The notes under the pieces are model-generated. The model was given only the letters and a program-made list of their open reading frames with translations. It was not told where the DNA came from and did not search any database. A DNA stretch of 64,000 nt from assembly GCF_963921235.1 (NCBI RefSeq), contig NC_086108.1, forward strand, positions 66,094,001-66,158,000. Reading direction: 5' to 3'. The DNA comes from Mobula hypostoma. Its lineage: Eukaryota. Positions 6,025 to 55,700 of this stretch are shown piece by piece (the first letter of the stretch is position 1; each line of letters opens with the position of its first letter). A program made the position numbers and the translations under genes.

Positions 6025-6468
6025 TAACACACAACGGAGCTAAAGGAACAAGATGGGTCAGGCAGCATCTAGGAGAGATCGACAGTTGACATTTCAGGTT
6101 GAGATTCTTCATCAGGACTGGAAAGAAAGAGGGGGAGACAACCATAATAAAAAAAAGTAGGGAGGGGGTGGAGCAAGAGTTGGCAGATGATAAGTGGATC
6201 CAGATGAGGGAGGAGATAAGCGGGTGAGGGGGATGGACTATAGGAATGATCTGTGGACCATGAAATAAAGGGAAGGAGATGCAGAGGGGAACTGGAGGGA
6301 ACAATGTGTGTGTGAGGGACAGATCAAGAGGGTAGGGGAGTGGAAAAAGATGGAGTGATGGGGCCAGTGGAATAAGGACAAGAAAAGAGGGACAAAATTA
6401 GTGAAATTGATGTTCATGGTGTCAGGCAGAAGTTTATTAAGGTATTAAGGCAGAATATAAGGTGCTGT
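6025..6468 (-). mobile_element. Old Penelope-like element 3'/pLTR fragment, truncated by Gypsy A
   Basis: Diverged homolog of the young PLE copies (GGCAGCATCT...TTCATCAGGACTGG, purine-rich tract, GAATATAAGGTGCTGT); stops exactly at the TGTAGT start of the LTR. Confidence 0.75.
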
Positions 6469-7087
6469 TGTAGTACCTGTGAAAAAGGGAGGTGGTGAAT
6501 GAAACATACACGTTATGCTGTTCATGCATCAGTAACTCTATGGTGAATGAGGAACACAGGATGTACATCTCCCCCCCCCAACCAAGCATTCTGGCAATCA
6601 ATCGCATGCTGAAGTTTGAATGCAAGACTTTACAAGTCAATGGCAGACTCAGTGCTCACTACTACAAAAGTATACCTTGCACACAGATTCACAAAACTTT
6701 CAATTAAATACATTTGCAAACAACAGGAATTCTGCAGATGCTGGAAATTCAAGCAACATACATCAAAGTTGCTGGTGAACGCAGCAGGCCAAGCAGCATC
6801 TATAGGAAGAGGCGCAGTCGACGTTTCAGGCCGAGACCCTTCGTCCTGAAAGGGTCTCTGCCTGAAACGTCGACTGCGCCTCTTCCTATAGATGCTGCTT
6901 GGCCTGCTGCGTTCACCAGCAACTTTGATGTATGTTAATTAAATACATTTGCACATTTTTTTAAGTAATGTCCCTTTTTCTCTCAACGTGAAATGATATT
7001 CACCTTAAATAAATTATTTGAACTCTTTTAAAAAAATATTTGAACAATTATTTATAACCAAATTGAACAGATTTCAGCCTTGTCACA
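6469..7087 (-). repeat. Gypsy A 3' LTR (contains fold-back PLE insertion)
   Basis: Minus strand TGTGACA...ACTACA, preceded by a degenerate purine tract (AAGGGATAGTG); about 80% similar by eye to 21112-21400. Confidence 0.8.
6719..6936 (-). mobile_element. Fold-back (inverted-duplicated) young PLE pLTR insertion
   Basis: 87-bp arms 6755-6841 and 6850-6936 with one mismatch; 17-bp TSD AATTAAATACATTTGCA at 6702-6718 and 6937-6953. Confidence 0.92.
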
Positions 7088-8132
7088 CACTATCCCTTAA
7101 AGGTAGATGCCGTCCCGACATTTCCTCCCAGTGTTAGATTTGCAATCACTACTTGTTTTATTTCATTCTCAAGGCTGTCACCCAGTAGTAATTTGGACAG
7201 AGAAGTTGTTCACAGACACTTATTTCCCGATACTTAGCTATGAACCACAGTCATTCAATACTAGAAATTGCTTGACAATGAGAGCAGATCACAATCACAA
7301 TTGCACTTAAACAGACCATGGCTGCCACGTCCTGGTTTCTAACAGGAATCTGTGATTACTAGGGCATTTCTGGGCTCCAATGAGGAAAGGTTTATATGAT
7401 TTTCTCTCTGAAGTTCTCTATGATAGTAACAGCCTTTGAGCACCTGGAGCATACCTGCCAATTAGCATAAGGTACAGTATAACAGCAGTTCACGAGCACT
7501 TCCTCGTAGCAGCAGTCCACGAGCACTTCCTTATGCCAAATTGTTGGTTGCTTTATAGTGCAACATTCACTTTTTCAGGGCATAAACAGTCCTCTCAATC
7601 AACAGTCCCTATACTACTTTCCTTATACAAAACATTCCTTTGGATTCTGCTATGCACATGGTAGTTGATGTGGGAGTGGGGGTACAGGTAGCCATAGAGT
7701 CATTGACATTACACAATTATAAGGCAAGGCCTGATTCTGATGCAGTTTACAGTCTGTATGGTGTAACATATGGGGGTTCCAAACCTATAGTAAGTAAGGT
7801 GTTTTGGTGGTCATCATTCTCTCTGAGGAAACTTTGAGTTCCCTTGTCTTTGCTCCATCTGGTTGTCTGGCTTATCATTCACTGGAGTAAATACAGGAAC
7901 TGGAATGGGTTGACATACTGGAAAATCATGTGGGTCTCTTGGTTTGGATGAACGTATAGAGACTGGTAGTGATTCACAATAGGTTAAGTCATCTCGGTTA
8001 CATGGTACGGATACAGGGACTGGTACTGGCTCACATGCAGGTAAGCTCAACAACTGCTCCTTCTTAGACACTTGTCACTGAAGTATTGGGAATCCTCGGC
8101 CCTCATTTGCTACTCAGCAAGTTGTGTAGGCT

Positions 8133-10150: not shown

Positions 10151-10181
10151 GATGCTACCCTGTCAGTACTTCCAGTTGAAC

Positions 10182-11289
10182 AAGCAACACACATCAAAGT
10201 TGCTGGTGAACGCAGCAGACCAGGCAGCACCTCTAGGAAGAGGTACAGTCGACGTTTCAGGCTGAGACCCTTCGTCAGGACTAACTGAAGGATGAGTGAG
10301 TAAGAGATTTGAAAGTGGGAAGGGTAGGGGGAGATCCAAAATGATAGGAGAAGACAGGAGGGAAAGGAATGGAGCCAAGAGCTGGACAGGTTATTGGCAA
10401 AGGGGATATGAGAGGATCATGGGACAGGAGGTCCGGGGAGAAAGACAAGGGGAAGGGGGGGGGGAAACCCAGAGGATGGGCATGGGGTATAGTCAGAGAG
10501 ACAGAGGGAGAAAAAGTAGAGTGAGAGAAAGAATGTGTGTATAAAAATAAATAACGGATGGGGTATGAGGGGGAGGTGGGGCATTAGCGGAAGTCAGAGA
10601 AGTCGATGTTCATGCCATCAGGTTGGAAGCTACCCGGATGGAATATAAGGTGTTGTTCCTCCAACCTGAGTGTGGCTTCATCTTTACGGTAGAGGAGGCC
10701 GTGGATAGACATGTCAGAATGGGAATGGGATGTGGAATTAAAATGTGTGGCCACTGGGAAATCCTGCTTTCTCTGGCGGACAGAGCGTAGATGTTCAGCA
10801 AAGCGGTCTCCCAGTCTGCGTTCGGTCTCGCCAATATATAGAAGGCCACATCGGGAGCACTGGACACAGTATATCACCCCAGCCGACTCACAGGTGAAGT
10901 GTCGCCTCACCTGGAAGGACTGTCTGGGGCCCTGAATGGTGGTAAGGAAGGAAGTGTAAGGGCATGTGTAGCACTCATTCCGCTTACAAGGATATATTAC
11001 GCCAGATTACAACAGCACCCCCCTTATCGGTGGGTTTAATAATAAGGTTAGGATAAATGCGGAGGGAGTGGAGAGCAGAGTGTTCCGAAGGAGTGAGGTC
11101 GGAATGGGAACAAGGTGCGGTGAAGTCGAGACGGTTGATGTCCCATCGGCAGTTAGCGATAAAGAGATCCATGAGCAGGCAGAAGACCAGAGCGGGGTGT
11201 CCATGAAGAAGAGGAGGGTTGAAGACGGGAGAAGGGGTCACCGGTGGGGGTGGAAGAGTCCTTGCTGAAGAAGTAGGCTCAGATTAAAC
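10182..11289 (-). mobile_element. Neptune-like Penelope element, RT-deleted derivative (N-terminal DKG region fused to GIY-YIG and pLTR)
   Basis: IIKPTDKGGAVVIW (10984-11241) joined to the linker CKRNECYTC and GVIYCVQCSRCGLLYIGET (10584-10910); TSD GTACTTCCAGTTGAAC/GTGCCTCCAGTTGAAC at 10166-10181 and 11290-11305. Confidence 0.9.
10246..10282 (-). ncRNA. Minimal type I hammerhead ribozyme motif in PLE pLTR
   Basis: Minus strand AGTC-CTGACGA-AGGGTCTCAGCCT-GAAA-CGTC-GACT. Confidence 0.7.
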
Positions 11290-11771
11290 GTGCCTCCAGT
11301 TGAACTCTGTCTTCTTATGTGTTTTCCCCCAGCTGTCAGTCCATAGTTTTGTATTGCCATGTTCTCCTGTCCCTGCTCCTGCTATTCTCCGGCCCCTGTA
11401 TTACTGAGTATTCTGTCTCTCATCCGTTTCTCATTATTACCTGTTTTGCTGCCACCTGTGTCTCATTGTGGTCCACTTATCATCTGCCTCTCTGTTTATT
11501 GCTCAGTGTATTTCAGTCCTGTGTTTTCACCTTTTTGTTGCAAGATTGTGCCAGTGAGTTTTTCTGAGTCTTTCTAGCATTTATATCTGTATTTTATCTG
11601 TTGAAATATTGACTCTTCCTGTTTCTGGTTTTTGGATTTCTCTGGATGTTTTGATCTCTGCCTGAACTTTAATGCTGACTTTGTTTGCACCTCAGGATTT
11701 GTTACTCAATTAATATCACTGTGTGCACAGTACTGGGTCTGCGATTGGATCCCTGCTCCAGCATCTTGACA

Positions 11772-12826: not shown

Positions 12827-13605
12827 ACATCACTCACTTTCATACCTGCTTCTTTGGAGTGGGGCATCCAACACCGAGCAGTCTCTGTCTTGGTCGATTC
12901 TGGTGCGGAGGGGTGTTGTAATGATTGCGGCTTGGCTGCCCAGTGGGAACTATCCACGTCTGCTCTCCAGTCACTATTAATGGCCAATGCCTTGAACGGT
13001 CAGAGACTGGCTAACATCATCCATGCCACGGCCCCAGTGAGTCTCAGTTTATCCATCCACCATCATGAACAATTAATCCTTTATTTTATTGACTCTCCCT
13101 TATCTCCCATTATCTTGGGCCATCCCTGGTTAGTCAGACACAGCAGCCACATTGACTGGCTTAGTCACAAGATTGTTGGCTGGAGCCCATTCTGTCACTC
13201 CCACTGCCTCCGCCATGCTCAGGCCCCCTTGTCTCCAAGCCCAGATCCCCCTGAGGAATTTCTGGACCTTAGTGCCAAATACATGAATACGTGGACCTCA
13301 AGGCTGTGTTCAGCAAGTCCCGGGCAACTTCCCTGCTGCCTTATTCTCCATTTGATTGTGCCATTGACCTCTTGCTTGCCACATCCCCCCCCCCCCACCA
13401 AGGGGCCGCCTGTATTCCCTGTCCATACCTGAAACAGAAGCCATGAATAAGTACATTTGAAAGTCTCTGGCTGCAGATATCATCCGGCTGTCTTCCTCCC
13501 CTGCTGCTGCCGTGTTTTTTTTTCCTCCTTGAAAAGAAGAATAGCTCCTTGCATCTATGCATTGATTAGCGGGGAGCGAATGAAGAACCGTTACCCTTTT
13601 CTGCT

Positions 13606-14299
13606 TGAGTCGACTGGGGTGATATACTGCGTCCGGTGCTCCCGATGTGGCCTTTTATATATTGGTGAGACGCGACGCAGACTGGGAGACCGCTTTGCTG
13701 AACATCTACGCTCTGTCCGCCAGAGAAAGCAGGATCTCCCAGTGGCTACACATTTTAATTCCACATCCCATTCCCATTCTGACATGTCTATCCACGGCCT
13801 CCTCTACTGTAAAGATGAAGCCACACTCAGGTTGGAGGAACAACACCTTATATTCCGTCTGGGTAGCCTCCAACCTGATGGCATGAACATTGACTTCTCT
13901 AACTTCCGCGAAGGCCCCACCTCCCCCTCGTACCCCATCTGTTACTCATTTTTATGCACACATTCTTTCTCTCACTCTCCTTTTTCTCCCTCTGTCCCTC
14001 TGAATATACCTCTTGCCCATCCTCTGGGTCACCCCCCCTCGTCTTTCTTCCCGGACCTCCTGTCCCATGATCCTCTCGTATCCCCTTTTGCCTATCACCT
14101 GTCCAGCTCTCGGCTCTATCCCTCCCCCTCCTGTCTTCTCCTATCATTTTGCATCTCCCCATCCCCCTCCAGCTTTCAAATCCCTTACTCACTCTTCCTT
14201 CAGTTAGTCCTGAGGAAGGGTCTCGGCCTGAAACGTCGACTGCACCTCTTCCTATAGATGCTGCTTGGCCTGCTGCGTTCACCAGCAACTTTGATGTAT
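13606..14299 (+). mobile_element. 5'-truncated Neptune-like PLE (GIY-YIG plus pLTR) inserted in Gypsy B RT
   Basis: GVIYCVRCSRCGLLYIGETRRRLGDRFAEH...; 16-bp TSD GTTACCCTTTTCTGCT at 13590-13605 and 14300-14315. Confidence 0.93.
14206..14242 (+). ncRNA. Minimal type I hammerhead ribozyme motif
   Basis: AGTC-CTGAGGA-AGGGTCTCGGCCT-GAAA-CGTC-GACT. Confidence 0.65.
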
Positions 14300-16833
14300 G
14301 TTACCCTTTTCTGCTCATGACCTTGGCATTTGAATTGCTACAAAGAGCCTCAGTTTTCACCAAGCTTGATCTCGGTAATGCTTACCATCTTGTCCACATC
14401 TACGAAGGAAATGAGTGGAAGACAGCCTTCAACACCACCTCAGGCCATTACGAGTATCTGGTCATACCATTCGGTCTCACCAATGCCCCCGCCGTCCTCC
14501 AAGCCCTGGTAAATGACATTCTCAGGGACATGCTGAACCAATTTGTTTTTGTGTATCTCGACGACATTTTGATTTTTTTTTCTAAGTCCCTTGCTGTATA
14601 CACAGGTCACATTTGCAGAGTTCTCCAGCATCTTCTGGAGAACCAGCTTTTTGTAAAGGCTGAGAAATGCAAGTTTCATTGCAAAAGTCTCCTTCCTGAA
14701 GTATGTAATTTCAGGCAGTTCCATTCAGATGGACCAACAGAAGGTCAAGGTGGTGGTCAAATGGCCCCAGCCCGTGACTCATTGGGAGGTGCAACGCCTC
14801 TTGGGCTTAATTAACTTCTATCACTGCTTCATCAGAAATTACAGTACACTGCCTGCATCACTCACTGCTCTTACCTCATCGACTGTCAGGTTCTCCTGGT
14901 CCCCTGCTGCTGGAAAAGCATTCTCTGACCTGAAGGAACGTTTCACCTCTGCCTCCATCCTGATTCAACATGACACTGACCGGCAGTTCATTGTGGAAGT
15001 GGATGCGTCTGACATTGGTGTCAGAGCTGTTCTCTCTCTCTCAGCGCTGGGCCAAGGTTGAGAAGGTACACCCCTGTGCTTTCTTCTCTCACCGCCTCAC
15101 TCCCACGGAGTGGAATTATGATATCGGAAACTAGGAGCTGCTGGCTGAGAAGCTAGCTCTGGAGGAGTAGAGGTATTGGCTGGAGGGAGACAAGGTGCCT
15201 TTCTTAGTCTGGACTGATCACAAGCATCTGGAAAATATCTGTGTGGCTAAGTGTCTCAACTCCTGTCAAGCTCGTTGGTCCCTGTTTTTCTCAAGATTCA
15301 ACTTAACTCTGTCCTTCTGCCCTGGTTTCAAGAATGGAAAACCTGATGCCCTCTCCCAAAGATTTCCTTCCTCTGAGACCCCTGAGGTACCCGATGTCAT
15401 CCTTCCTGCTCACTGTCTCGTGGGTGCAGTGCAATGGGACATTGAATCCATTGTGCAAGCTGCTCAACAGAGCGAGGCAGCCCTTAGTCAATGCCCCATT
15501 AACCGTGTTTATGTTCCCAGCTCTGTCCACTCACAGGTATTGCAGTGGGGTCATGCTTCCTGTTTATCCTGTCACTCTGGAACCAAGTGTACTCAGGCCT
15601 TCATAAGTCGGCGGTTTTGGCAGCCCTCCATGGGAGATGACATCCGCAACGTTGTCTCAGCCTGCTTGGTCTGTGCTCAAGGTAAGAATGCTAACTGGTC
15701 ACCCACTGGTCTGTTACAACCTCTGTCTATCCCCAAGAAGCCCTGGTCCCACATTGCCCTGAATTTTGTCACCGGTCTTCCCCCATCAGATGGTGATACC
15801 ACCATTCTCACAGTAGTTGATCGTTTCTCCAAGTCTGTACACTTCATTCCTTTACCTAAACTCCCCTCAGCCAAAGAAACAGCCAAATTACTAGTACTGC
15901 ATGTTTTTAAGTTGCATGGTTTACCTGTAGATATTGTGTCAGACAGGGGCTCTCAATTCACATCCAACTTCTGGAGAGCATTCTATAATCTTCTGGGCGC
16001 CTCTGTCTGGATTTCACCCACAGACCAATGGCTGGACTGAACGGGCCAACCAACAGCTGGAGACTGTACTGCGGTGTCCATTCTCCCAGAACCCCTCTGC
16101 TGGAGTCAGCAGATACCCTGGGCCGAGTACGCCATAAACTAATCTGTTCTCATCCACCAGTCTGTCCCCTTTTGAGTGCTGCCTTGGCTACCAACCTCCA
16201 CTGTTTCCTGCCCAGGAGGAGGATGTTGGCATTCCATCTGCCGAGGCATTCATCTGCCATTGTCAGCTCATGTGGAGCTGCACTTGCTCTGCCCTTGTCC
16301 GTGCCTCTGCTAGGATCAAGGATCAAGCGTCAAGCTGACCGCCATTGCTCTAAGGCCCCACGTTACTGCCAGGGACTGTGTGTGGCTTTCAACCTGACAC
16401 CTGCCCCTCAAGGTGGATTACCACAAGCTCGCCCCTCACTTCATTGGCCCCTTTCCCATTGCTAAAGTCATCAGCCCTGCTGCCGTCCATCTCAAGCTCC
16501 CCTCCACTTTCTGCTGCATTCATCCCACCTTCCATGTGTCCTGCATCAACCCTTTCATTAGCCACCCCCTGTGTCCTGTCCCCAAATCCTCCCCTCCCCC
16601 ACGACTCATCAATGGATCAGAGGCCTTCACGGTGCCTTGACTGCTGGATGTTCATCGCCGGGGCCGTGGCCTCCAGTACTTTGTGGACTGGGAGGCTTAC
16701 AGTCCTGAGGAGAGGTGCTGGGTCTCTGCCCATAACATCCTGGACCCCTCTCTCATCAGGGACTTTCATCGCCAGTACCCAACTCTACCTGCCGTGACGC
16801 CAGGAGGTGTCCGTAGGTTGGGGGAGGGGGTAC

Positions 16834-17322
16834 TGTCAGTACCTCCAGCTGAACTGTCTTTTTGTGTGTTTTCCCCTAACAGTCAGTGGTTTTGTATTGC
16901 CACATGTTCCTGTCCTTGTTCCTGCTCTACTCCGGCCCCTGTATTACAGAGTACTCTGTCTCTCATCTGTTTCTCATTATTACTTGTATTTCTGCCACTG
17001 GTGTCTCATTGTGCTCCACCCATCACCTGCCCCTCTGTTTATTGCTCAGTGTATTTCAGTCCTGTGTTTTCTTTCACCTGTTTGTTGCCAGATTGTGCCA
17101 GTACATTTTCCTGAGCCTTTCCAGCATTCGTGTCTGTACTCTGTCTGTCTGAACATCAACTCTGCCTGTTTCCTGAATCTGGTTTTTTGGATTTTTCCGG
17201 ATGTTTTGATTTCTGCCTGAACTTTGACACCAACTTTCTTTGCACCTCGGGATTTGTTAATTAATATCACTGTGTGCACAGTACTGGGTCTGTGATTGGA
17301 TCCCTGCTCCAGCGTCCTGGCT
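16834..17322 (+). repeat. Gypsy B 3' LTR
   Basis: Preceded by polypurine tract GGGGGAGGGGG (16820-16830); starts TGTCAG; terminal GACA decayed to GGCT. Confidence 0.9.
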
Positions 17323-18500: not shown

Positions 18501-18508
18501 TTATTCAA

Positions 18509-18674
18509 GCAACACACATCAAAGTTGCTGGTGAACGCAGCAGGCCAAGCAGCATCTATAGGAAGAGGTGCAGTCGACGTTTCAGGCCGAGACCCTTTGT
18601 CAGGACTAACTGAAGGAAGAGTGAGTAAGGGATTTGAAAGCTGGAGGGGGAGGGGGAGATGCAAAAGGTGCAAA
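18509..18674 (-). mobile_element. Short PLE pLTR insertion
   Basis: 13-bp TSD AGAGTTTATTCAA at 18496-18508 and 18675-18687; hammerhead core mutated (CTGACAA). Confidence 0.9.
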
Positions 18675-18897: not shown

Positions 18898-19101
18898 TGT
18901 CCAGCTCTTGGCTCTATCCCTCCCCCTCCTGTCTTCTCCTATCATTTCGGATCTCCCCCTCCCCCTCCCACTTTCAAATCTCTTACTAGCTCTTCTTTCA
19001 GTTAGTCCTGACGAAGGGTCTCGACCCGAAACGTCGACTGTACCTCTTCCTGGAGATGCTGCCTGGCCTGCTGCGTTCACCAGCAACTTTGATGTGTGTT
19101 G
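18898..19101 (+). mobile_element. Short PLE pLTR insertion
   Basis: 8-bp TSD GTTGACAC at 18890-18897 and 19102-19109. Confidence 0.9.
19004..19040 (+). ncRNA. Minimal type I hammerhead ribozyme motif (best-preserved copy)
   Basis: AGTC-CTGACGA-A-GGGTC-TC-GACCC-GAAA-CGTC-GACT: stem I AGTC/GACT, stem II GGGTC/GACCC, GUC cleavage triplet. Confidence 0.75.
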
Positions 19102-20800
19102 GTTGACACACAAGTATAGGCTGTTGAAGTTGCTCCTCGACCTGTGCAATGCCTTCACTAAGTCTTTAACTGTGACACCAGGTCTATGTGAGTCCTTTTC
19201 CTCTGACATTGATGTTCCTCTGACTGTGCAGAGTTAACAGTGGCAGTGTGGGCTGACCCAGCTGGCTTCCATTTATTCTTTTTCTCCGCTTTATTTGCAC
19301 ATGCAATGTTTAGCTTCTCTAATAGTTCCTCACCTCAGGTTTTGGGGAATAAAAGGTATGGCTGGAGGTAACTTTGAATGCAATCAGTGTAAACTGTTGA
19401 GTACAATATGTGAAAGCATACTCTGTGCTAAGGCTGGATCATATTTCTGACCAGGCTCCCCTTCCTGTGAGGCAAACTACAGTTTCTGCTTCAGATCAAG
19501 AATGCATATTAGGAAACTTTGTGGTGTCTTTGTACTGTGTTGGGCTTCTGCTGTCAGTGTCCGGTGCTCCTGATGTGGCCTTCTATATATTGGCGAGACC
19601 CGACGCAGACTGGGAGATCGTTTTGCTGAACACCTACGCTCTGTGCCCCAGAGAAAGCAGGATCTCCCAGTGGCCACACATTTTAATTTCACGTCCCATT
19701 CCCATTTTGATATGTCTATCCACGGCCTCCTCTACTGTAAAGATGAAGCCACACTCAGGTTGGAGGAACAAAACCTGATATTCCATCTGAGTAACCTCCA
19801 ACCTAATGGCATGAACATTGACTTCTCTAACTTCCATTAATGCCCCACCTCCCCCTCATACCCCACCCATTATTGCCCATCCTCTGGGTTTCCCCTCTCC
19901 CCCTTTCTTTCTCCCTAGGCCTCCCATTCCATGATTCCCTCATATCCCTTTTGCCAATCAACTGTGCAGCTCTTGATTCCATTCCTCCCCCCTCCTGTCT
20001 TCTCCTATTATTTCAGATCTCCCCCTCCCCCTCCCACTTTCAAATCTCTTACTAGCTCTTCTTTCGGTTAGTCCTGACAAAGGGTCTCAGTCTAAAATGT
20101 TGATTGTACCTCTTCCTATAGATGCTGCCTGGCCTGCTGCGTTCACCAGCAAATTTTATGTGTGTTGCTTGAAATTCCAGCATCTGCAGATTTCCTCATG
20201 TAGCTGCTTGTACTGTTCAGTTGTCCCTTTTTCCTGATAATGTGAGCAAAGGATCTGTCTAAGGGTAGGTAAGTTCAACTCTGATTTGCCCTCAAGATAA
20301 CTGAGCAACTGGAGCCCAGGCAGAATCGCTCTGATCACTGCGTCAATGATCTCCTCCTCCAGATAGCCTCTATTTAGCGCGCTTCCTATCTGGGGAACAA
20401 GGCTAGAAAATGATGACAACTTGTCTTTCTGACCAGGCTCACCAAAATCTTTCCACCATGCTGGTGGGACAACTTCCCTCTGAACTAACCACTGCGGATC
20501 GCTCGAGTTCTTCCTGCTAGGAGCTGACCTTTTTATTGAACTGCGGGTTACTGTAATTTCCCTGTTTTCTTCCTCTGTTTCATCAGCCGTTGCAGTTGTT
20601 GTAGCCACCAACTCATTAACTTGTCTCTACCCAGCAGAAATTCAGACATGCCACTGTCCTCCAGATGTCCCAGCTCCTCTCTTCCCAGATGGTCACTTAT
20701 GAGGAACACGAGAGGCAAACAGGTTTTCTTAGTGATGTCCTCACCTGGGAGTTGAAGGAAGCTATTGAGCTTACCAACTTGTCTTTAGGTAATTCACATA
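19102..20800 (-). pseudogene. Gypsy A gag (PNMA-like), interrupted by a PLE
   Basis: ORF 20156-20611 continues across the PLE: HYQEKGTTEQYKQL / TAEAQHSTKTPQSFL. Confidence 0.75.
19558..20201 (+). mobile_element. 5'-truncated PLE (GIY-YIG plus pLTR), somewhat older
   Basis: GIY-YIG remnant ORF 19643-19840; decayed hammerhead at ~20071; only a 2-bp (AG) duplication. Confidence 0.88.
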
Positions 20801-21111: not shown

Positions 21112-21405
21112 TGTAGTACCACTGAAAAGGGGAGATGGCGAATGAAACATACGTGCTGCACTGTTCATGTATCAATAACTCTGTGCTGAAGGAGAAATAC
21201 AGTGTGTACTTCAACTACCCTCCCCAAAACAGCCCCCCCACCCCACCCCTGGCATTCTAGCAGGCATAAACAATCAATCGCATGCTGAAGATTGAATGCA
21301 AGACTTTACGAGTCAATGTCACATTCAGTGCTCACTGCTATAAAAGAATACCTTGCACACAGATTCTCAGAAATTTCAACTCAATACATTTCATTTGCAT
21401 GTTTT
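21112..21405 (-). repeat. Gypsy A 5' LTR, truncated
   Basis: TGTAGTACC... homologous to 6469 onward; homology ends near 21400 at a fusion with Gypsy C integrase. Confidence 0.8.
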
Positions 21406-29700: not shown

Positions 29701-29971
29701 CTTTGCTCCTAGCGTCGAGCGGCCGGGCAGCCGTCTACAAACTATGTGCACTAGTCTGAGTTTGGGAGCCGCGAGATTACAGTAAAAAAGGGGCAATATC
29801 TGCAAAGTTGTCGATGAGGAAACAAGAGAATAAGGATCCATTGGAAAGGAGTGCGGGTTCTCTGATTTCTTTTCCCCTTGGCCATTCTGAGCCACTCCAC
29901 TAGGGGGTCTGAGAGACTGGAGAGTTGCTACCGACACAAGGATTGAAGACACTGGGCCGATCACTTCAACA

Positions 29972-31030
29972 ATGACTCTAGGTGCCGACATGTCTGATCA
30001 TTCACTGCTCTCCGAGGATACAGATATTGATGTGGTCGGTGATATGAACAGCAAAGAAGGGAAATATGGTCATTTTCTTTCTGACAACGATTCAGACGAT
30101 ATCTTAAGCAGGAACGTTTCCGAGAATATTGAGTCCCCGGACTTGTCCGGCGTGTCTGACCCAGGTACGACCAGGGCAAGTGAGAAATCATGCAAAAGTA
30201 CTTTGGTCAAACCTCCCTACTCTTACATCGCTCTGATCACTATGGCCATTCTACAGAGTCCAAAGAAGAGACTAACATTGAGTGAGATCTGCGAGTTTAT
30301 CAGTAATCGTTTCCCTTACTACAGGGAAAAGTTCCCTGCCTGGCAGAACTCCATCCGGCACAATTTGTCTCTCAACGACTGCTTTGTGAAAATACCCCGG
30401 GAGCCCGGGAATCCTGGCAAGGGCAACTACTGGACTCTCGACCCCGATTCTGCAGACATGTTTGACAACGGGAGCTTCCTTCGGAGGAGGAAACGGTTCA
30501 AAAGGCAGCAGCCGTCCGAAATCTTGAGAGATCACGGCAGCTTCATGCCAAGTTTTGGATATGGACCTTATGGCTGCGGTTATGGCATCCAGCTGCAAAA
30601 TTTCCACCACCCTCATCACCATGCCTCCCCGAGTACGTTCCCATTCCAGCCTCCGCACTGTACGGTGCCATCACCAGCGTCAATGTTCCCAGCTGCAGCT
30701 ATCCCCTCGCTTTTACACAGCAACGACTTAACCAGGAAATCCTTCTACCCGCAGCTGAGTCCCACTCTACCCAACCTACAAGGATTGAAAGCAGACCCGA
30801 GTCAGTCCAGGCCTTCCTTCTCTATAGACAATATCATAGGGGCTGCTCCGTCAAATACCCCCGGGTCTCCCTACTCAGCTCCGCCTGGAAGCCAAGCACA
30901 GGTCCTGGCAATGTTAACTCCAGCACTCACGCAGTCCCAGAACCCTCTAAACTTAACGCACGATAATGTTCTACAGACTGGACAGACCTTTTCAAGTAAA
31001 CTCACAAATCTTAACACCTGTCACTATTAA
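29972..31030 (+). CDS. foxd2: Forkhead box protein D2, single exon, 352 aa
   Basis: FoxD forkhead domain [28 protein letters not shown]...[16 protein letters not shown]-terminus [23 protein letters not shown]; eh1 motif FSIDNII (30818-30838); C-terminus [13 protein letters not shown] matches amphibian FoxD2 as I recall it, rather than FoxD1/3/5. Confidence 0.93.
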
Positions 31031-31567: not shown

Positions 31568-33298
31568 TGGTTTTAACTCTGAAAAATATGCCTTCCCATG
31601 TATTTGTACATAATGTTTGCTCATAAAACTTAAATCAGAGTTTTAAGTAACTATTTGGGGCCTAAGATTTATAACAATCACAGGATTAAAGTTTGGCGAT
31701 AATACAACGCCCTGTTATTTTATATTATATATATATTACATTCTGGTAATACCTCACTCTATCTAAATTAACATATTCTGTTTAACTCGAATAGTTCATA
31801 ATTATTTATTATGTAAATTACATTGTTGTATTCAATGGTCCAGTAAAAACTGAGGCCTCAATTTTGTTCGACGAAGAGATGAGTGAGCATGATATCAAGG
31901 ACAGAATCGTAATATTTCAAATATACCTAAAATATATGGACAATGCAATTGTTTATAGCTTCATTTGTTCCCTATTTTTTTTAAAAAAATACTATGCTCC
32001 AATTTAGAAGTGAAACCAAAAGAAGGGTGCCCATTAAAAAGGCAGTGTTAAGAGTTGGTTATTTTATTTTTCTTCTTGTATGATTATTTTATGAGGTGAG
32101 CTGAATACGTTTCAAAAGAGATTTGTGCAGTTTTTTTTATTTTAAAGTAGATTAGCAATAAGGAGTCAGAGGAAAGTTTCATACAATTTGCAAAACATTT
32201 TACTCACTCCACACATAAAGACTAACTGGAATTTTCAATTCACCTGTGCATATGGCTATTATGTTCTTAGAAGCTGGAAATAGTTTTGAAGTCTTACTGG
32301 TACTTGTTAATCCAATGTATTGTCTGGAACAGCTTCTTCCCAGCTCCTCATAAATAGTCTTGCTGGTGGCTCTCGCTTTGGATATAATTTTCTGGACACC
32401 ACTAATTTGCAGAAGCGTTGTATCTGCTGTAATCCACACAAAGGCCGTCTAGTTTGTTTATGTTGCTGATAATGCCTCGTCCTGAATAAATGACTCCCAG
32501 CGAGCGGTCTCAGGCCCAACTCACGCATTCGCTTTTGAAAAGCGATCTTCTCTCAGACAGTTGGTTGTCTTTTATCTTTGTGTTTCTTTGCCTGTACAAA
32601 GGTTGTTTAAGACTCGAAGATCCGCTCCACGGGATAAAACAGACGGGCAATCTATCTATTTTAAAGGTTTGCCAACTACCATGTTTTACTTAGCATAGTA
32701 AAGCTCTTTCATTTGCTGTGATTGTGTTCAAGTTGCAATTTTACCACATAGGGCTTTTTCTGACACGCTCATTAGCCGAAGGTACCCCTTTTTGAAGCAT
32801 GTGATAACGATAAAAATGTGGTTCAGTTCTCAAGATGTCAATGGAACTGTCTTTAATTGTTGACATTAGCCTGTACATTGAGGTCGCATAATTTGGACTA
32901 ATTGGCAAAGGAATGAAGACAGTCTTCAAGGCTCAACCACGGGATAAAAGGAACACGTCTAATGAAAGTGGGCTATCCATCTGTTGGGCCTGTCTAGGAT
33001 GAAATTCCAAATCAAAATCAAACCTGTAAGATTTTTTTGTTAGTTTTCCTACTGCCACGGCTATTGTTTGTATTGAGCTAAAATGGGATGAAATACATAG
33101 CAAATAAATAAAGCTTGAATTTTGTTCCGTAAAGTTTCCCTTTTAAGCGAAGCGTCGACTGGAAGTGTTCTGGTAGTTAAGTTTTCTTCATCAAAAATTG
33201 ATCGATTGTAGTTTTTTTTTAGAGTGAAACTGACCTGGCGTGACATTTTGCAGAAAATACTGTAAAAACGATATCTTAATGAGGCATGGAAAAATTAT

Positions 33299-33321
33299 CA
33301 CCAGCAACTTTGATGTGTGTT
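33299..33321 (+). mobile_element. 23-bp PLE micro-insertion
   Basis: CACCAGCAACTTTGATGTGTGTT is identical to the young PLE 3' end; perfect 15-bp TSD GCATGGAAAAATTAT at 33284-33298 and 33322-33336. Confidence 0.9.
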
Positions 33322-36300
33322 GCATGGAAAAATTATGTTTATTTTCAGATTTACAGCATCTACACTATGTTGGTTTTATAATAGGAGTTCAAGGGATAGC
33401 TGGTTTGTGTCATTCGGAGTTGGCCACTTAAGATGTACATCGACCATTATGAAACTCCGTGGCTCTTCACAGGTAAAGTGTCGCAGCCTAGTTTCTTTTG
33501 TTGCTATGTGAATATTGCCTACAAGTAATCTACTTCAAGAGCCGTCCTTACTGATTTGCATAACAACTGAAATAGGACATTTGCGGTTTGCCCAGCGAGA
33601 AGCCTCACGCTCGAAATGGGGGCTTTTATCTTCAACGTAAATCTTTTAAAGGGCAAGTTAATATAGGATTATTTGCAACAACTGCAATAAACCCGTCCAG
33701 AACTAGTACCTGTTTGTAATAGGCTGCATAAATCTCCAAGTTATTGTTGAATGGGTCATAGCTGACGTTGAACGTCGGACAATTCAACCGAAGTAATTGT
33801 AGTTAAATGTACCGTTTGTCGTCTGCTTAATAGAATTAGGAGTTTCCTACCCTTGCTATTCCATTTCGATCACTTTGCAATTTATTTAATTCACGGGATT
33901 CTTTAAGTATATGCAGCCGTGATTAGTCCCATCTCTTTAAGTTAAGAACTACCAGTTTTATATTGATGCGTAAAACAGTAGAAGCATGTTCAAACTGATT
34001 ATTGTGATAATTCTGGTTGGCATTTTGTGAGCCCCGCTGCCCACGTTGGGTCAATGAGCAGGGAACAGACCTATTAACCTACGTTTTAGTGACACCTATA
34101 ACGGATACGTGCCAGCTTCTTCATTACAGCGTTAAGTTTCGAACATAGCTGAGAGTAATGATTAGATTTAAAGAAGAGTATAAAACGCGTGTAATTTATA
34201 TTTAGATAAAACGCAATATACTTTAGGTAGCAAATTGTAGAATTGTCATTTATGTCCTTTCCAATATCAGATAAATATTTTCAGGGCTTTTAGTAAATGT
34301 CTTTGAAGACATATTTTTAGAATCAATGATCAATACTGTATCACTTTCGCGAATCGTTATACGATTGTATTCAAAACCAAAAATAAAACCTGTCCCACGT
34401 TCAAAGTGATCTGAAATTGTTAAACAACTTGCAGCGTGAAAGGGATATCATATGTACCATCAGGATTAGCTAACACCAACCAACTCTTAAATGGTTTGTA
34501 TGAACTAACATTAAGATAGTGTTACAATGTGTAATGCTATATCATCTCTATCTCCAGGTCTTAGCACCCAGCGATTTAGAATATAAGGGAGAAATGTGGA
34601 TGTTTGGTGTCCACATATCCAGGAACAGCTTTAAAGTTGCATTCTGAAAATGCTTTTTGTTTTCTAAAATATACAGTCTGTTTTAACAGAATACGAATTT
34701 CGTTTTTCATTTCAAGAATATAGTCAATACACTTGCATGAAATGGGATGGGTTGGTGTGTGTGTGGAGGTGGGGGCGGGAGTCAGTGGGAATCCTGCAAG
34801 AGCCGCTGCTTGCCAAAGAATAATTTGGATCTTGTTCATCTGTAAACTGGCCAAAATTATTAATGAAGACAAATCATGTTAATTAATAGGAAAGAGAACA
34901 CGGATAAATGAACGGGATGAAATCCACAGTTACATTACTTCGTTAGAAATCATTTGGTAAACAAATCCCACACGGGGAATGTTGTGCTGCGTTTAGATGA
35001 CAGCGTGCTATCCATAACCCGATAGGATATCAACACAAGTACTTCTATACCAAGTGTTAGGTTTCCTCCTAACGAGACTTTTTTTTTAATTTTTGGGATT
35101 ATTCGCTTTGTCTACGTGAATTTGAAAGAGATTTCAAATGTCATGGGTTCGGTTCCTGCTCAGATAGCGAAGAGTGATCCAAGTACTCCGATTGTTGTGG
35201 GGTTGGAACTTGTGATGCGTAAACGCCTTACATGGTGGGTTATACGCCATTGGATTCGCTCTATGATTGTCAGCAAATGTGTGGGTTGGTAAAAATGAAC
35301 AGAGAAAATGTTTCTAGGAGAAAGTTACTCTTATGAAAAGGAGCAGAGGGTCAGTCAGATAGGAAATGTTCAATCGTTTATATGTTGTTTGTTCTTTTAT
35401 TTGAGAGTCATAAATATTGCAGTCTGAATGTTCATTAGTACGGCCTGCTTCATTTTTCAGAAATTTTCTTTGGATGAATATTTCATTTGTGATACCATGA
35501 CAGAGATAATTGTCATGTTGTCTCTGACGCTTCTTTCCATGTATAACCTGTAATGGGAATATGAAACAGATGTCAGCATGTGAGTTATTAAACTTTCATG
35601 CAAATAAAATGAGTTTATCTTTTTTTCATAGAACCGAGACGCCACATTCTCAAAACAAATTATTAAATTCCTTATGTTTACAAATCAGATTAGTGACTTT
35701 CTATTAAGATTACTCTTAATAACAACTAAGTATTTATTTCAGCAACGGATTGTTCATCTCACAAATATGCTAATATTCAATGGGTTCACCATTCCAATTC
35801 ACGTAATTGCATTCAACCTCCTAATACTTTAATTTTTTTGAAATAAACTGGTAGTGTGACAAATCATTTAAAGCAGATTTCAACTTGGCGTTGTTTTTAA
35901 TATGTTTTCAACTTGCTCAGACAAATTGTCAGATATCTTCCTGAGTTTTCTAACCATTTCGAATGAGCATTGCTCAGAAATGTGTTAAAGGTTCACACAA
36001 CAGAGCTATTCTCGTAACATACTTTCTTGCGGCACATTTATTCTATTACCAACTGATTAAACAGATTTATTTGTGTTTTTAAATGCATTCAATGATTACC
36101 CCAACAGTTGTTGTCATTTTAGGTTTGAGTTGGACAAAACCGATGCTTTAGTTTATAAAGCATGCATGAGGTGTGCGGCCTATAGTTTCAAAAACCTTGC
36201 ACGCGATTGCAGTTCTGTATATCATTTTTTGTAGAAGCTCATTAATTTCGAAATGACAAATGAATGATTTGGTCTTGTTGAAGACGTGTCAAATAACATC

Positions 36301-47824: not shown

Positions 47825-48460
47825 ACACGTATAAAATGCTGGCGGGAACTCAGCAGGTCAGGTAGCCTCTACGGAAATGAAAAAGCAGTTGATGTCTCGG
47901 GCTGAGACCCTTCATCAGGACTGGAAAGGAAAGGGGAAGAAGCTGGAATAAGAAGGTTGGGAGAGGGAAGGGGAGATGAAATAAGAAGCTGGGAGGTGAT
48001 AAATAGAAAAAGCAAAGGGCTGGAGATGAAGGAAAATGATAGGAGAGGAGAGTGGATCATGGGAGAAAGGGAAGCTGCAGGGACAACAAGGGGGAGGTGA
48101 TAGGCAGCTGAGGAGAAGAGGTAAGAGGCCAGAGTGGGGAAATGAAGAATAGGGAAGGGAGAAGGGAAAAAAATTACCATGTGTTGGAGAAAATGGATAT
48201 TCATGCCTTCAGGTTGGTGGCTTTGTGGATGAAATATGAGGTGCTGCCTCTCCAGACTGAGAGAGGTCTCATCATGACAGAGGAGGATGTCATGAGCTGA
48301 CAAGCCGGAATAAGATTGGGGATTGGATTTAAAATAGTTTGCCATTGGGAAATTCTGCTTTTTGTAGGTACTGCTGAGGTGCTCGACAAAGTGGTCCTCC
48401 ATTCTACGTTGGATCTCATCAGTGTAAAGCAGGCCACAAACTGAGCCCTGGATGCAGTAG
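47825..48460 (-). mobile_element. Older PLE fragment (GIY-YIG plus pLTR)
   Basis: ORF 47869-48402 is homologous to the GIY-YIG C-half; hammerhead with a GAGA mutation at ~47886-47922. Confidence 0.8.
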
Positions 48461-49153
48461 TAGACCCTAACATCTCAGCAATACCTGTCTGTCCACCTAT
48501 TTTTGTGCTGTCTGCAAACTTGGCCACAAACCCATCAACTCTGCCATCCAAATCAGTGACATAGAATGTGAAAAGAGGTGGTCCTAACACCAGTCCCTGT
48601 GGAACACCACTAGTCACTGGAAGCTAAACATAAAGTCCCCCTTCATTCACACACTTTGCCTCCTACCAATCAGCCAATTTTCTATCCATCCTCGTATCAT
48701 TCCTGTAATACTATGAGCTCTTGTTATGCAGCCTCGTGTGTGGTACCTTGTCAAAAAGGCCTTCTGAAAAACCAATTAAACAACATCCATCAACTCTCCT
48801 TTGTCTATCTTTCCTGTTATTTCCTCAAAGAATTCTTACAGATTCGTCAGGCAAGATTTTTCCTGAAGGAAACCATGCTGACTTGGGCCTATTTTATTAT
48901 GTGCCTCCAAGTACTCTGAAATCTCATCCTTAATAATGGACTCCAACGTCTTCCCAACCACCGAGGTTAGGCTAACTGGCCTATAATTTTCTTTCTTCTG
49001 TCTCCCTTCCTTCTTTAAAAGTGGAGTGACATCTGCAATTTTCCAGTCCTCTGAATCTAGCGGTTCTTGAAAGATCATTACTAATTCCTCCACAATCTCT
49101 TCAGCTACCTCTTTCAGAATCATGGGGTGCAGTCTATCTGGTCCAGGTGATTT
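48461..49153 (-). mobile_element. CR1 LINE RT fragment
   Basis: KSPGPDRLHP...NYRPVSLTSVVGK; SGVPQGLVLGP...FADSTK. Confidence 0.85.
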
Positions 49154-50754: not shown

Positions 50755-51005
50755 ATCTGCCTATCACCCCCCTTTCTCCCATGATGCACTCTCCTCTCCT
50801 GTCAGATTCTTTCTTCTCCAGACCTTGCTTCAACCCCCTCCCCCACCCATCTGGCTTCCCCTATCACCTTCTAGCTTGTCCTCCTCCTCTTCCCCCACCT
50901 TCTTGTCCCCCTTCTTTTCCAGTTCTGATGAAGGGTCTTGCCCCGAAACGTCATCTGTTCATTTATTTCCATAGATTTTGTTGCTCTGAATTTCTACCAT
51001 CTGTG
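50755..51005 (+). mobile_element. Older PLE pLTR fragment with hammerhead core
   Basis: CTGATGA-AGGGTCTTGCCCC-GAAA-CGTC at 50925-50952. Confidence 0.7.
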
Positions 51006-52724: not shown

Positions 52725-55700
52725 GAGTCTTAGAACATGACAGTACAGAAACAGGCCCTTCAGCCCATCTAGTCTGCTAAACTATTAAGCTGTCTAGTCC
52801 CATTGACCCCAGATCATAACCCTCCATACCCCTCCCATCCATGTACCTATCCAAATTTCTCGTGTTGAAATTGAACCAACATCCACCACTTGCGCTGAAA
52901 ATTTATTCTACACTCTCACCACTGAGTTATGAAGTTCTCCTCATGTTTCCCTTAAACTTTTCATTTTTCACCCTAAATCCAATTGTAGCCTCACCTAACC
53001 TCAGTGGAAAAAACCTGTTTGCATTTACTCCATCTAAACCTCTCATAATTTTGTATGCGCACAATCTATAAAATCTTACCGCGATCTTCCACAGTCTAGA
53101 GAATAAAGTCCTAACCTGTGTAACCTTGCCATATAACTTAGGTCCTTAAGTCCCAGCAATATCCTTGTAAATTTTCCCTGTACTCTATCTATCTTACTTG
53201 CATCTTTTCTGTGGGTGGGTAACCAAAACTGCATACAATGCTCCAAATTAGGCCTCAGCAACAATTTCAACATAACATCCCATCTCCTGTACTCAATACA
53301 TTGATCTATGAAGCTCAATATGCCAAAAACATTCTTTATGATCACGACCCTATCATCTTTACTGATAACTTCCTCAAAAACACTGTAAGTTTGGTTAGAT
53401 ATGATTTAAGATTTCCTCCATCTCTTTCAGCTCCATGCATAGATGACCACTCTTATCCTCCAATTTTGTCCCTTGTTATCTTTTTGTACTTAATATATCT
53501 GTACTCTGAACTGGCAACTGAAGCTGCCCAGAATGGCTGGAAGACCAGGGTTTTCCCTGTAGAAGTGGGATGCAGGGGATTCATTGCTACATCTACGACC
53601 AGTCTATTGAAGAAGATGGGGGTGAGGGGTCACTCCCTCCAACAAGCAATTAAGTCCTTGTCAAATGCAGCAGAAGAAAGCAGCAATTGGATTTGGATTA
53701 AAAGGAAAGACAACAACTAGGCTGCAAGATGAAGACAGGAGGGTATGGAACTGAGTGGGGTGTATCTGGGACACCAGGTAGCACCGTTGAGCCCTCTGGA
53801 GACGTCGTGGGCTTATCAACGAAACGTCAAAGAAGGAGGGTGCCCACTTGATGACCCCAATGACGTACCGACCCTCCCTCCTTGTCACCACTCCAAACCC
53901 ACTGCCAACATTGAGAGTGCCAACTTACCATAGGGATTGAAACATCAAGTCCTAGTAGCTCTACTGCAGAAGCCCTCAGGATTCTTATTCACCATGTCTG
54001 CTAGGGAAATCTCAAGTCTTCTTTTAACCCTCCTGATTTCCTTCGTAACTGTTCTCTTGCAATTCTTACACTCCTCAAGTACTTCATTTGTTCCTGCCTG
54101 CCTGTACTTGCAATGCACCTCCTTCTTTTTCCTAACTAGGGCCTCAAAATCTCTTGAAAGCCAAGGTTCCCTAAACCTGTTATACTTGCCTTTTATTCTG
54201 ACAGGAACATACAAACTCTGTACTCTCAAAATTTCACTTTTGAAGGCTTCCCACTTACCAAGTACACCCTGCCACAATCCACACTTATCAGATCTTTTCT
54301 GATACCATCAAAATTGGCCTTTCTCCAGTTTAGAATCTTAGCTCAAGGACCAGTCCTATCCTTTTTCCATAATTACATTGAAACTAATGGCGAAGTTCAT
54401 CACACAATCTTCTGTCACCTACCCTGTCTCATTTCAAAATAAGAGATCTAGTTCACACTCTCTCTAGGTGGAAATTCTATATACTGATTAAGGAAACTTC
54501 CATGAACATATTTGACAGACTTTTTCCCATCCAGCCCTTTTACAGTATGGGGGTGCCAGTCAACATGTGGAAAGTTAAAATCACCTACTGTGACAATCTT
54601 ACTTTCTTGCAACAGTCTGGGATCACTCTGCAATTTGCTCCTCTAAATCCCGTGGACTGTTATATTATAGACTGTACGGGGGGAGGGTGGGGGGATTTAA
54701 ACTAGAGTTGCAGGGGAATGGGAACCAAAGCTTCAGAACAGAGAGCGGAGTGGCTGTGGAGAAAGCCTACATACAAATTCAGAAATCGAAAGGTTGAGTA
54801 AGGTGGGACTAATCCCGTTAGGATATTAGACCTCATCCAGCTCAGGTGCAAACTATCACTTCTGTACAGATCCCACCTTTCCTAGAAGACAGCATAAAGA
54901 TCCCAAAATCTTAAGCCCTCCCTCCTGCTGCATCTCCTTAGCTATGTGTTAAACCATATAATCTTCCTATTTCTGGCCTCATTAACACATGGCATGGGTA
55001 GCAATCCTGAGTTTATAACCCTGGAAGTCCTTTTCTTTAACTTAGCACCTAACTCCATGAATTCACTTTGCAGAACCTCATCACGCTTCCTACCTATATC
55101 ATTGGTACCGACGTGGACCACAACTTCTGGCCGCTCATCTTCCCTCTTAAGATTGCTATGGACTTGATCCAAGATATTCTTGACATTGACACCTGGGAGG
55201 CAACACACCATCTGAGAATCCCATTCTCATCCAGAGAACCTCTTCCCTGTTCCCCTAACCATTGAATCCTCTGTCACTACAGCTCGCCTCTTCTCCCCCT
55301 TCCTTTCAGAGCCACAGAGCCAGACTCGGTGCCAGAGACCTAAATGCTGTGGCTCTCCTCTGCTACGTCATTCCTCCCAATAGTATTCAAAGTCTTATAC
55401 AAAGCCACATGGATACTCTACACTGGCTGCCTATGCCCTTTTCCCCTCCTGGTGGCCACCCAGTTACCTGTGCACTGCACCTTGGGTGTAGCTACATCCC
55501 TGAATGTCCTGCCTATCAGCGCCTTAGCCTTTCAAATGATCTGGAGTCCATCCAATTCCAGCTTCAACTGCTTAACGTAGTCCATTAGAAGCTGCAGCTG
55601 AATGCACTTCTTGCAAGAGTATCCATCAAGGATACTGGAGTTTTCCTTGCCTTCCCACATCCTGCAAGAGGAGCATTTCACTACTCTGCCTGGCAACCCC

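Follow-up and report, generated by a model that had tools for sequence, protein, structure and literature searches.

The window, i.e., the entire 64-kb stretch of DNA analyzed here, carries at positions 6719-6936 a 218-nt insert made of two inverted arms of 87 nt each (6755-6841 and 6850-6936; coordinates re-derived from the sequence), which differ at a single position (C at 6832, T at 6859) and are separated by an 8-nt loop (6842-6849). The flanks 6702-6718 and 6937-6953 are identical at 17/17 positions, and this 17-mer occurs at these two places only in the 64 kb when both strands are checked, with a chance expectation of ~3e-10 per position. The hairpin coordinates, the 218-bp length, the single arm mismatch, and the perfect 17-bp TSD reported in an earlier note on this DNA were thus all exact on re-check. 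Along the minus strand, the first TSD copy is followed by the tail-less end of the pLTR in inverted orientation, the pLTR end in sense, the 36-nt tail, and the second TSD copy (Table 1). The one-sided 36-nt tail at 6719-6754, absent from the earlier note, is the most informative part of the insert. The left arm is 97.8% identical over 91 nt to the PLE copy at 14212-14302. The insert, which contains neither an ORF nor an intact ribozyme, is most likely inert.

Table 1. Segments of the 218-nt insert and three sister copies of the same family in the 64-kb window
Feature	Position	Strand	Remarks
Left TSD copy, 17 bp	6702..6718	+	G or C at 3/17 bases; single copy in the empty site of organism B
PLE tail, 36 nt, on one side only	6719..6754	-	Outer end is the distal 3' terminus of the family, putative RT start site 1
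Left arm, last 87 nt of the pLTR	6755..6841	-	In sense orientation on the minus strand; includes stem II of the hammerhead, GAAA, the predicted cleavage site 6820/6819, and the 3' strand of stem I
Junction	6842..6849	.	6842-6845 continue the left arm, by comparison with the copies at 19100 and 14302
Junction, right part	6843..6849	.	Beginning of the right arm in sense; the core CG is absent after 6849
Right arm, tail-less inverted pLTR, 5'-truncated	6850..6936	+	Ends at the tail-less terminus of the family, putative RT start site 2; derived change at 6859; predicted cleavage site 6871/6872
Right TSD copy, 17 bp	6937..6953	+	Identical to 6702-6718
Sister copy, 5'-truncated, not inverted	13606..14302	+	GIY-YIG remnant; 16-bp TSD; sits in a Gypsy-like RT region
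Sister copy	10181..11294	-	DKG-motif piece, Cys-x4-Cys-x2-Cys, GIY-YIG; 11-bp end direct repeat; 5' boundary approximate
Sister copy with intact minimal hammerhead	18898..19101	+	8-bp end direct repeat; served as reference for positions in the family

The window holds six other young copies of the family, at 10181-~11294 (-), 13606-14302 (+), 18509-18674 (-), 18898-19101 (+), 19559-20196 (+), and 33299-33321 (+). Five of them have end repeats of 8 to 16 bp, so long TSDs are usual in this family; none was found for the copy at 19559-20196. The copy at 33299-33321 is a 23-nt micro-insertion between 15-bp direct repeats, read by eye (window positions 33284-33336), which stops at the tail-less terminus and is about the smallest possible target-primed product. 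The region 13592-13909 of the 13606-14302 copy matched PF01541 with 25.2 bits (cut-off, 22.6), and the same profile search gave no match for an older copy at 47872-48474. In the 10181-11294 copy, Cys-x4-Cys-x2-Cys precedes GIY-YIG, and DKG was read in the translation. The DKG-motif piece of this copy abuts the linker and endonuclease region with the RT core missing, through either an internal deletion or a template jump; no RT core of the family was found anywhere in the window. Passages of PMC8557442 name DKG as a PLE motif and give the Cys linker motif for the Neptune and Nematis clades. Because the sister copies carry GIY-YIG, DKG, and the Cys linker motif, the family is, as judged from these predicted motifs, a Neptune-like EN+ PLE, with a Cys linker motif that does not separate Neptune from Nematis.

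The hammerhead of the copy ending at 19100 comprises a 5-bp stem I, the CUGACGA core, an extra base (a bulged A) before stem II, a 4-bp stem II with G-C as the first pair, GAAA, and a palindromic CG at 15.2-16.2, in agreement with the marks of minimal type I hammerheads in PLE pLTRs given in PMC4209133. Rfam at gathering thresholds returned 0 hits in the 64 kb, and the hammerhead call hence rests on motif and stem inspection. Together, GIY-YIG, DKG, the Cys linker, and the hammerhead of the sister copies support the PLE origin that had been claimed for the insert. Older, diverged PLE copies (68 to 78% alike) occur at 6056-6140, 47846-48474, and 50907-50958; both copies included in the alignment have a CTGATGA core. 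A 22-nt family motif was found at 0 loci in viral contigs and 0 in metagenome contigs; its sole locus in a prokaryote genome was dismissed as chance, as the likeness is limited to these 22 nt.

The target site is itself part of older repeats: 6480-6715, on its left, matches 21123-21391 at 75%, and the flanks 6590-6700 and 6960-7100 reach depths some tens to hundreds of times that of single-copy sequence. Between ~10000 and 23000, five PLE copies are nested among decayed Gypsy-like pol frames (RT, RNase H, and integrase-like translations), and the segments 11290-11770 and 16839-17319, 83% alike, are a possible LTR pair. Other long inverted repeats pair 18505-18666 with 18945-19106 and 18504-18660 with 20017-20173; these are separate insertions, since the copies at 18509-18674 and 18898-19101 have end repeats of their own. 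An intact single-ORF forkhead gene (29891-31030, +; PF00250, 132.5 bits), which we take to be FoxD-class, lies 23 kb from the insert and is the only intact host ORF identified in the window by a search that did not cover short exons. At 53223-53720 (+), an ORF ends in non-LTR-retrotransposon-like sequence, presumably the C-terminal nuclease region of such an element.

Contigs from 4 of 24 sequencing runs, representing two samples, were compared with the window: X1 and X2 from organism A, and X5 and X6 from organism B. The fraction of shared words was 0.85 for organism A and 0.48 for organism B; 12 runs at 0.05 to 0.13 were left out. The organism A runs derive from one sample, possibly the source of the assembly, and those of organism B likewise from one sample. 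Each run of organism B has one contig (X5 record 19 and X6 record 25) that joins 6701 directly to 6937. X5 record 19 departs from the window at 1 of 85 nt and at 3 of 122 nt, and X6 record 25 is alike; the contig overlaps the adjacent flank contigs by ~28 to 29 nt each side, and paralogous pieces at the flanks carry 6 to 10 differences per 70 to 110 nt. Given these overlaps and the greater divergence of the paralogues, we read this contig as the orthologous empty site. The 17-mer is single copy there and is therefore a true TSD, and the empty site implies one insertion that postdates the split of organisms A and B. The exact TSD and the empty site with its one 17-mer thus support the earlier claim of a single integration event. 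In organism A, a 165-nt contig that matches the window without a difference in both runs spans 6914-7078; 23 of its letters fall within the element, i.e., under the 31-letter bar for bridging. Neither the left nor the centre junction occurs among the contigs listed, so that the assembly is the source for the centre, and no empty-site contig of organism A occurs among them. The depth of the right-junction contig equals that of its single-copy neighbors (11.9 versus 11.5 and 12.3 in X1; 20.3 versus 20.0 and 21.1 in X2), which suggests that the organism A individual is a homozygous carrier.

The flank records 17, 19, and 23 of X5 have other letters at 9 of 603 aligned positions (with slight overlap), i.e., ~1.5%, and the insertion is younger than this flank divergence from organism B. 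The single mismatch in 87 arm positions corresponds to a 95% interval of 0.03 to 6.2%. If the mutation rate of the epaulette shark, 7e-10 per base per generation (PMC10587355), applies, the upper bound of the insertion age would be near 1e7 generations. The term "freshly formed" used earlier therefore goes too far: the divergence sets only an upper bound on age, and the organism A individual looks homozygous. Better supported is the relative youth of the subfamily that had been proposed along with it. By summed contig depth, a rough measure of variant share, the letters of the insert at 6759 and 6813 account for ~19% and 33% in X1 and for ~3% and 2% in X5, shares that fit an expansion of the subfamily in the organism A lineage. 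The arm variants were rejected as private markers of this copy, being common to the subfamily.

We next give positions in the pLTR as d, the number of nucleotides upstream of the tail-less terminus. Compared with an intact copy, the minus strand of the insert runs in antisense as far as d=96, skipping d 88-89, and switches to sense at d=88. A 3-nt microhomology, GTC (6843-6845), is compatible with both arms. The edges of the junction are those of an 8-nt quasi-palindrome, GTC-CT-GAC (d 96-89), which overlaps stem I and the core of the hammerhead; 9 such 3-bp inverted words, this one included, occur within the last 111 nt of the copy. Both arms have a disrupted CTGACGA core, the left one lacking its first two bases together with the 5' strand of stem I and the right one lacking CG; a turn inside the hammerhead core, as had been claimed, is thereby confirmed. 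Neither arm of the insert has an intact CUGANGA core with stems I and II. The predicted cleavage site (d 66/65) is 22 to 30 nt from the turn, and the template RNA was uncleaved, since both arms read through this site.

The placement of inversion points relative to the hammerhead, which the earlier note had singled out as a check, was assessed on other fold-back turns, taking the best 15 of 217 joints, i.e., 13 distinct pairs. Seven of the 13 have both ends downstream of the cleavage site, 4/13 have one end at d 93-96, and 2/13 have one at d 83-85; in 0/13 do both ends lie in the core, and 0/13 turn within 2 nt of the cleavage site. The listed turns thus reveal no link to ribozyme cleavage, and a turn at the cleavage site was rejected for the insert as well, given its distance from it. 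Among the same best 15 joints, two occur in both orientations; inverted words are present at both of them, GCC-T-GGC in the case of d 34/40 and CTCT-TCCT-AGAG in that of d 44/58. The joint data are weak, because the rows are the best-supported ones only, have sides of 20 to 29 letters at a likeness of 90, and come from a reference that ends at d=91, which favors ends just beyond; the rows may stem from other repeats, and several are strongly asymmetric with no listed microhomology. An X6 row of 32 contigs with loose letters behind 6849 (agreement, 0.47) may represent, in organism B, this turn with the CG still present.

Direct joints from 6845 to 6813-6815, restarting ~35 to 40 nt downstream, make up 3 of the 12 best rows and occur in both organisms, which suggests tandem hammerhead-unit repeats, retrozyme-like, in both. 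A pyrimidine tract plus AG directly precedes the hammerhead start in young and old families (14150-14210; 47910-47930, -; 50910-50930), a weak resemblance to a 3' splice acceptor in a 3' UTR that is pyrimidine-rich anyway. In Drosophila virilis, the end of the intron has been placed at the 5' end of helix I (PMC4209133). The right arm of the insert starts at the AG/TCCTGA boundary, just before the hammerhead. It is possible that cDNAs stop preferentially at this boundary, whether a splice acceptor or the 5' end of the RNA; 4/13 joints have an end at d 93-96, but the end of the reference favors such joints.

Both outer ends of the insert sit on family termini, that of the right arm at d=1 and the left one at d=-35. 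Of the six other young copies, five have their ends between d=+4 and d=-7, with ranges due to overlap with the TSD, and the sixth ends inside the tail, at ~d=-29. Loose AT-rich contig ends before 6715-6718 amount to 438 contigs in X1 (in the four best X1 rows), and the tail end at 6715-6719 is a mass terminus in all 4 runs. In vitro work on PAc, a Poseidon element of Anolis carolinensis, describes cutting and extension of both target strands, RT starts at two sites bounding the tail, a bias toward AT-rich DNA, a predicted dimer, and no need for ribozyme cleavage (PMC11167929).

The insert is a dead, very short head-to-head PLE copy, which we consider somewhat more likely than not to have been produced by one event of dual target-primed reverse transcription. 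A GIY-YIG endonuclease, the presumed enzyme, would nick both strands of the AT-rich site 17 nt apart. The plus-strand end would then prime cDNA at the distal RT start, yielding the tail and the left arm, and the minus-strand end would prime at the proximal start, 36 nt upstream, yielding the right arm; the priming is modeled on the Poseidon in vitro work, and the ends themselves are observed. The two cDNAs would meet at GTC-CT-GAC, where the microhomology is observed and annealing is presumed, extend on each other, and have their overhangs trimmed. Being of the same sequence, they can pair only through self-complementary words. The CG loss and the change at 6859, both in the right arm and no more than 10 nt from the joint, would have arisen at joining or later. 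With DNA parameters, 14-nt cDNA ends pair in trans at -5.2 and -8.4 kcal/mol and form hairpins at -0.6 and 0.0 kcal/mol, a comparison that is only indicative as the program forbids loops of <3 nt. Dual priming would probably explain the TSD and both ends, as well as the tail on one side, the near-symmetry, and the tiny loop. Consistently with it, organism B has the empty site, the right arm ends where non-inverted copies end, PAc cuts and extends two strands from two RT starts in vitro (PMC11167929), and the junction falls on the edges of a quasi-palindrome, with the two both-orientation joints also at inverted words. Against it, both arms share every subfamily variant, with no sign of two RNA templates; the in vitro data, as described in PMC11167929, concern the Poseidon clade and include no joined product with two ends; microhomologies of 3 nt often arise by chance, and the joint data are thin. 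Moreover, passages of PMC3846280 and PMC8557442 read the same layout as self-priming and endonuclease resolution.

That published reading corresponds to a snap-back, in which the cDNA begun at the tail end folds at GTC-AG-GAC and copies itself, the far end being resolved at the tail boundary, e.g., by the endonuclease of the element. The junction lies exactly on the quasi-palindrome, the arms stop within 8 nt of each other and have all subfamily variants in common, and self-priming and endonuclease resolution of the tail are proposed in PMC3846280 and PMC8557442, respectively. Yet the loop would be just 2 nt, and the longer antisense overhang is on the minus strand, i.e., on the tail-less arm, which means that either the tail had no template or the loop was flipped later. 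The tail-less end is, in addition, the terminus of plain non-inverted copies and an RT start in vitro (PMC11167929). A simple snap-back, offered earlier together with twin priming, thus fits poorly, with a right arm that ends like non-inverted copies and extra loop bases on the tail-less strand, and we regard it as unlikely. Inversion of the L1 twin-priming type was rejected, as the arms duplicate the same 87 nt and there is no poly(A); classical twin priming on one RNA does not duplicate sequence.

A longer head-to-head insertion that lost its centre by microhomology-mediated deletion seems quite improbable. It would agree with the 3-nt microhomology, the 2-nt deletion at the tip, and the internal deletions known in the family (the DKG piece joined to the EN region at 10181-11294), but a single arm difference in 87 leaves little time, one event would have to trim two independently truncated arms to within 8 nt of each other, and very short primary insertions do occur, as at 33299-33321 (23 nt, 15-bp TSD). 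Copying of the hairpin as a whole, as a non-autonomous MITE-like unit from a parent fold-back element, could explain why some joints reach depths of 30 to 227, versus ~12 to 20 for single-copy contigs of organism A, and the 32-contig row of X6, with what may be the same turn in organism B. The asymmetric ends, with a 36-nt tail, the 17-bp TSD, and the absence of the junction from all 6 other young copies of the window speak against it, recurrent joints being expected from microhomology hotspots, and we give such copying hardly any weight. MITEs have terminal inverted repeats at both ends, a short transposase-type TSD, and many whole-unit copies. The whole hairpin unit occurs once in the 64 kb, and the insert, described before as MITE-looking, was rejected as a MITE for the 36 nt that lie outside the repeat at its left end and for its 17-bp TSD. 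An assembly or consensus artefact at the palindromic centre is very improbable too: the centre and left junctions are absent among the contigs listed and the best run holds 0.85 of the sampled words, but the TSD agrees with the empty site in organism B, a contig with 0 differences carries the right junction, and both insert ends are family termini.

Somewhat more tentatively than for the mechanism of the insert itself, we propose that minimal fold-backs could be in vivo records of two-ended PLE integration, in which a protein dimer would prime on both target strands at the two RT start sites and the identical cDNAs would join in trans at quasi-palindromes. If true, a single model would cover the inverted pLTR together with the tail on one side and the TSD, and would take the place of the self-priming reading in print. 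The model is a near consequence of PMC11167929, and a single copy is insufficient as proof. No statement of a two-ended model for PLEs was found in the literature covered, which excluded most subscription journals, e.g., older Penelope papers. The main text of PMC11167929 presents no joined two-ended products and no explanation of inverted copies, and passages of bioRxiv 10.64898/2026.07.22.740005 held nothing bearing further on the finding.

The insert alone matters little, as one of very many dead PLE copies with a known layout. Its use is as a clean case for the question of how inverted ends and tails of PLEs arise: the TSD is exact, a close relative has the empty site, the two ends coincide with the two family termini, and the microhomology at the joint can be read. 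Short PLE fold-backs can also pass for MITEs; no description of them in cartilaginous fish was found in the literature covered, again largely outside subscription journals. As for the RNA, the predicted fold of a transcript of the insert has 86/87 base pairs at -183.1 kcal/mol, against a mean of -63.9 kcal/mol for shuffled sequences (z, -27; 0/200 shuffles as good), which bears out the earlier claim that a long dsRNA would form upon transcription. In transformed Drosophila melanogaster, siRNAs were sequenced and mapped to inverted Penelope regions (PMC3681739). The insert resembles this rearranged Penelope in having an inverted PLE segment able to form family-matching dsRNA, in our case by a computed fold only. 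Self-priming at PLE inverted junctions and siRNAs from inverted copies are already in print (PMC3846280 and PMC3681739, respectively).

The layout of the insert is a new instance of an already described PLE pattern. Twin priming of L1, reportedly described by Ostertag and Kazazian in 2001, is similar in that both strands prime cDNA, the junction has short microhomology, and there is one TSD; it is reported to invert a non-overlapping upstream segment and to need poly(A), whereas the insert doubles the same 87 nt from fixed starts. In PLEs, an inverted 5'-truncated copy often adjoins the 5' end, and a tail of 30 to 40 bp is often present at one end only (PMC8557442). Pen2a_Av of the rotifer Adineta vaga is an inverted-pLTR unit with a TSD, and self-priming has been proposed at PLE inverted junctions (PMC3846280). 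The insert shares with Pen2a_Av and with the scheme in Fig. 2 of PMC8557442 the inverted truncated copy, the junction palindrome, the one-ended tail, and the outer TSD. It departs from the Pen2a_Av type in that only the last 87 to 96 nt of the pLTR are left and the junction lies inside the hammerhead core, and its TSD has 17 bp versus 8 to 10 bp in the rotifer cases (PMC3846280). With PAc, it has in common the AT-rich target, two RT starts bounding the tail, an upstream hammerhead, and an uncleaved template (PMC11167929), although PAc is a Poseidon element and the family described here is Neptune-like by its Cys linker motif.
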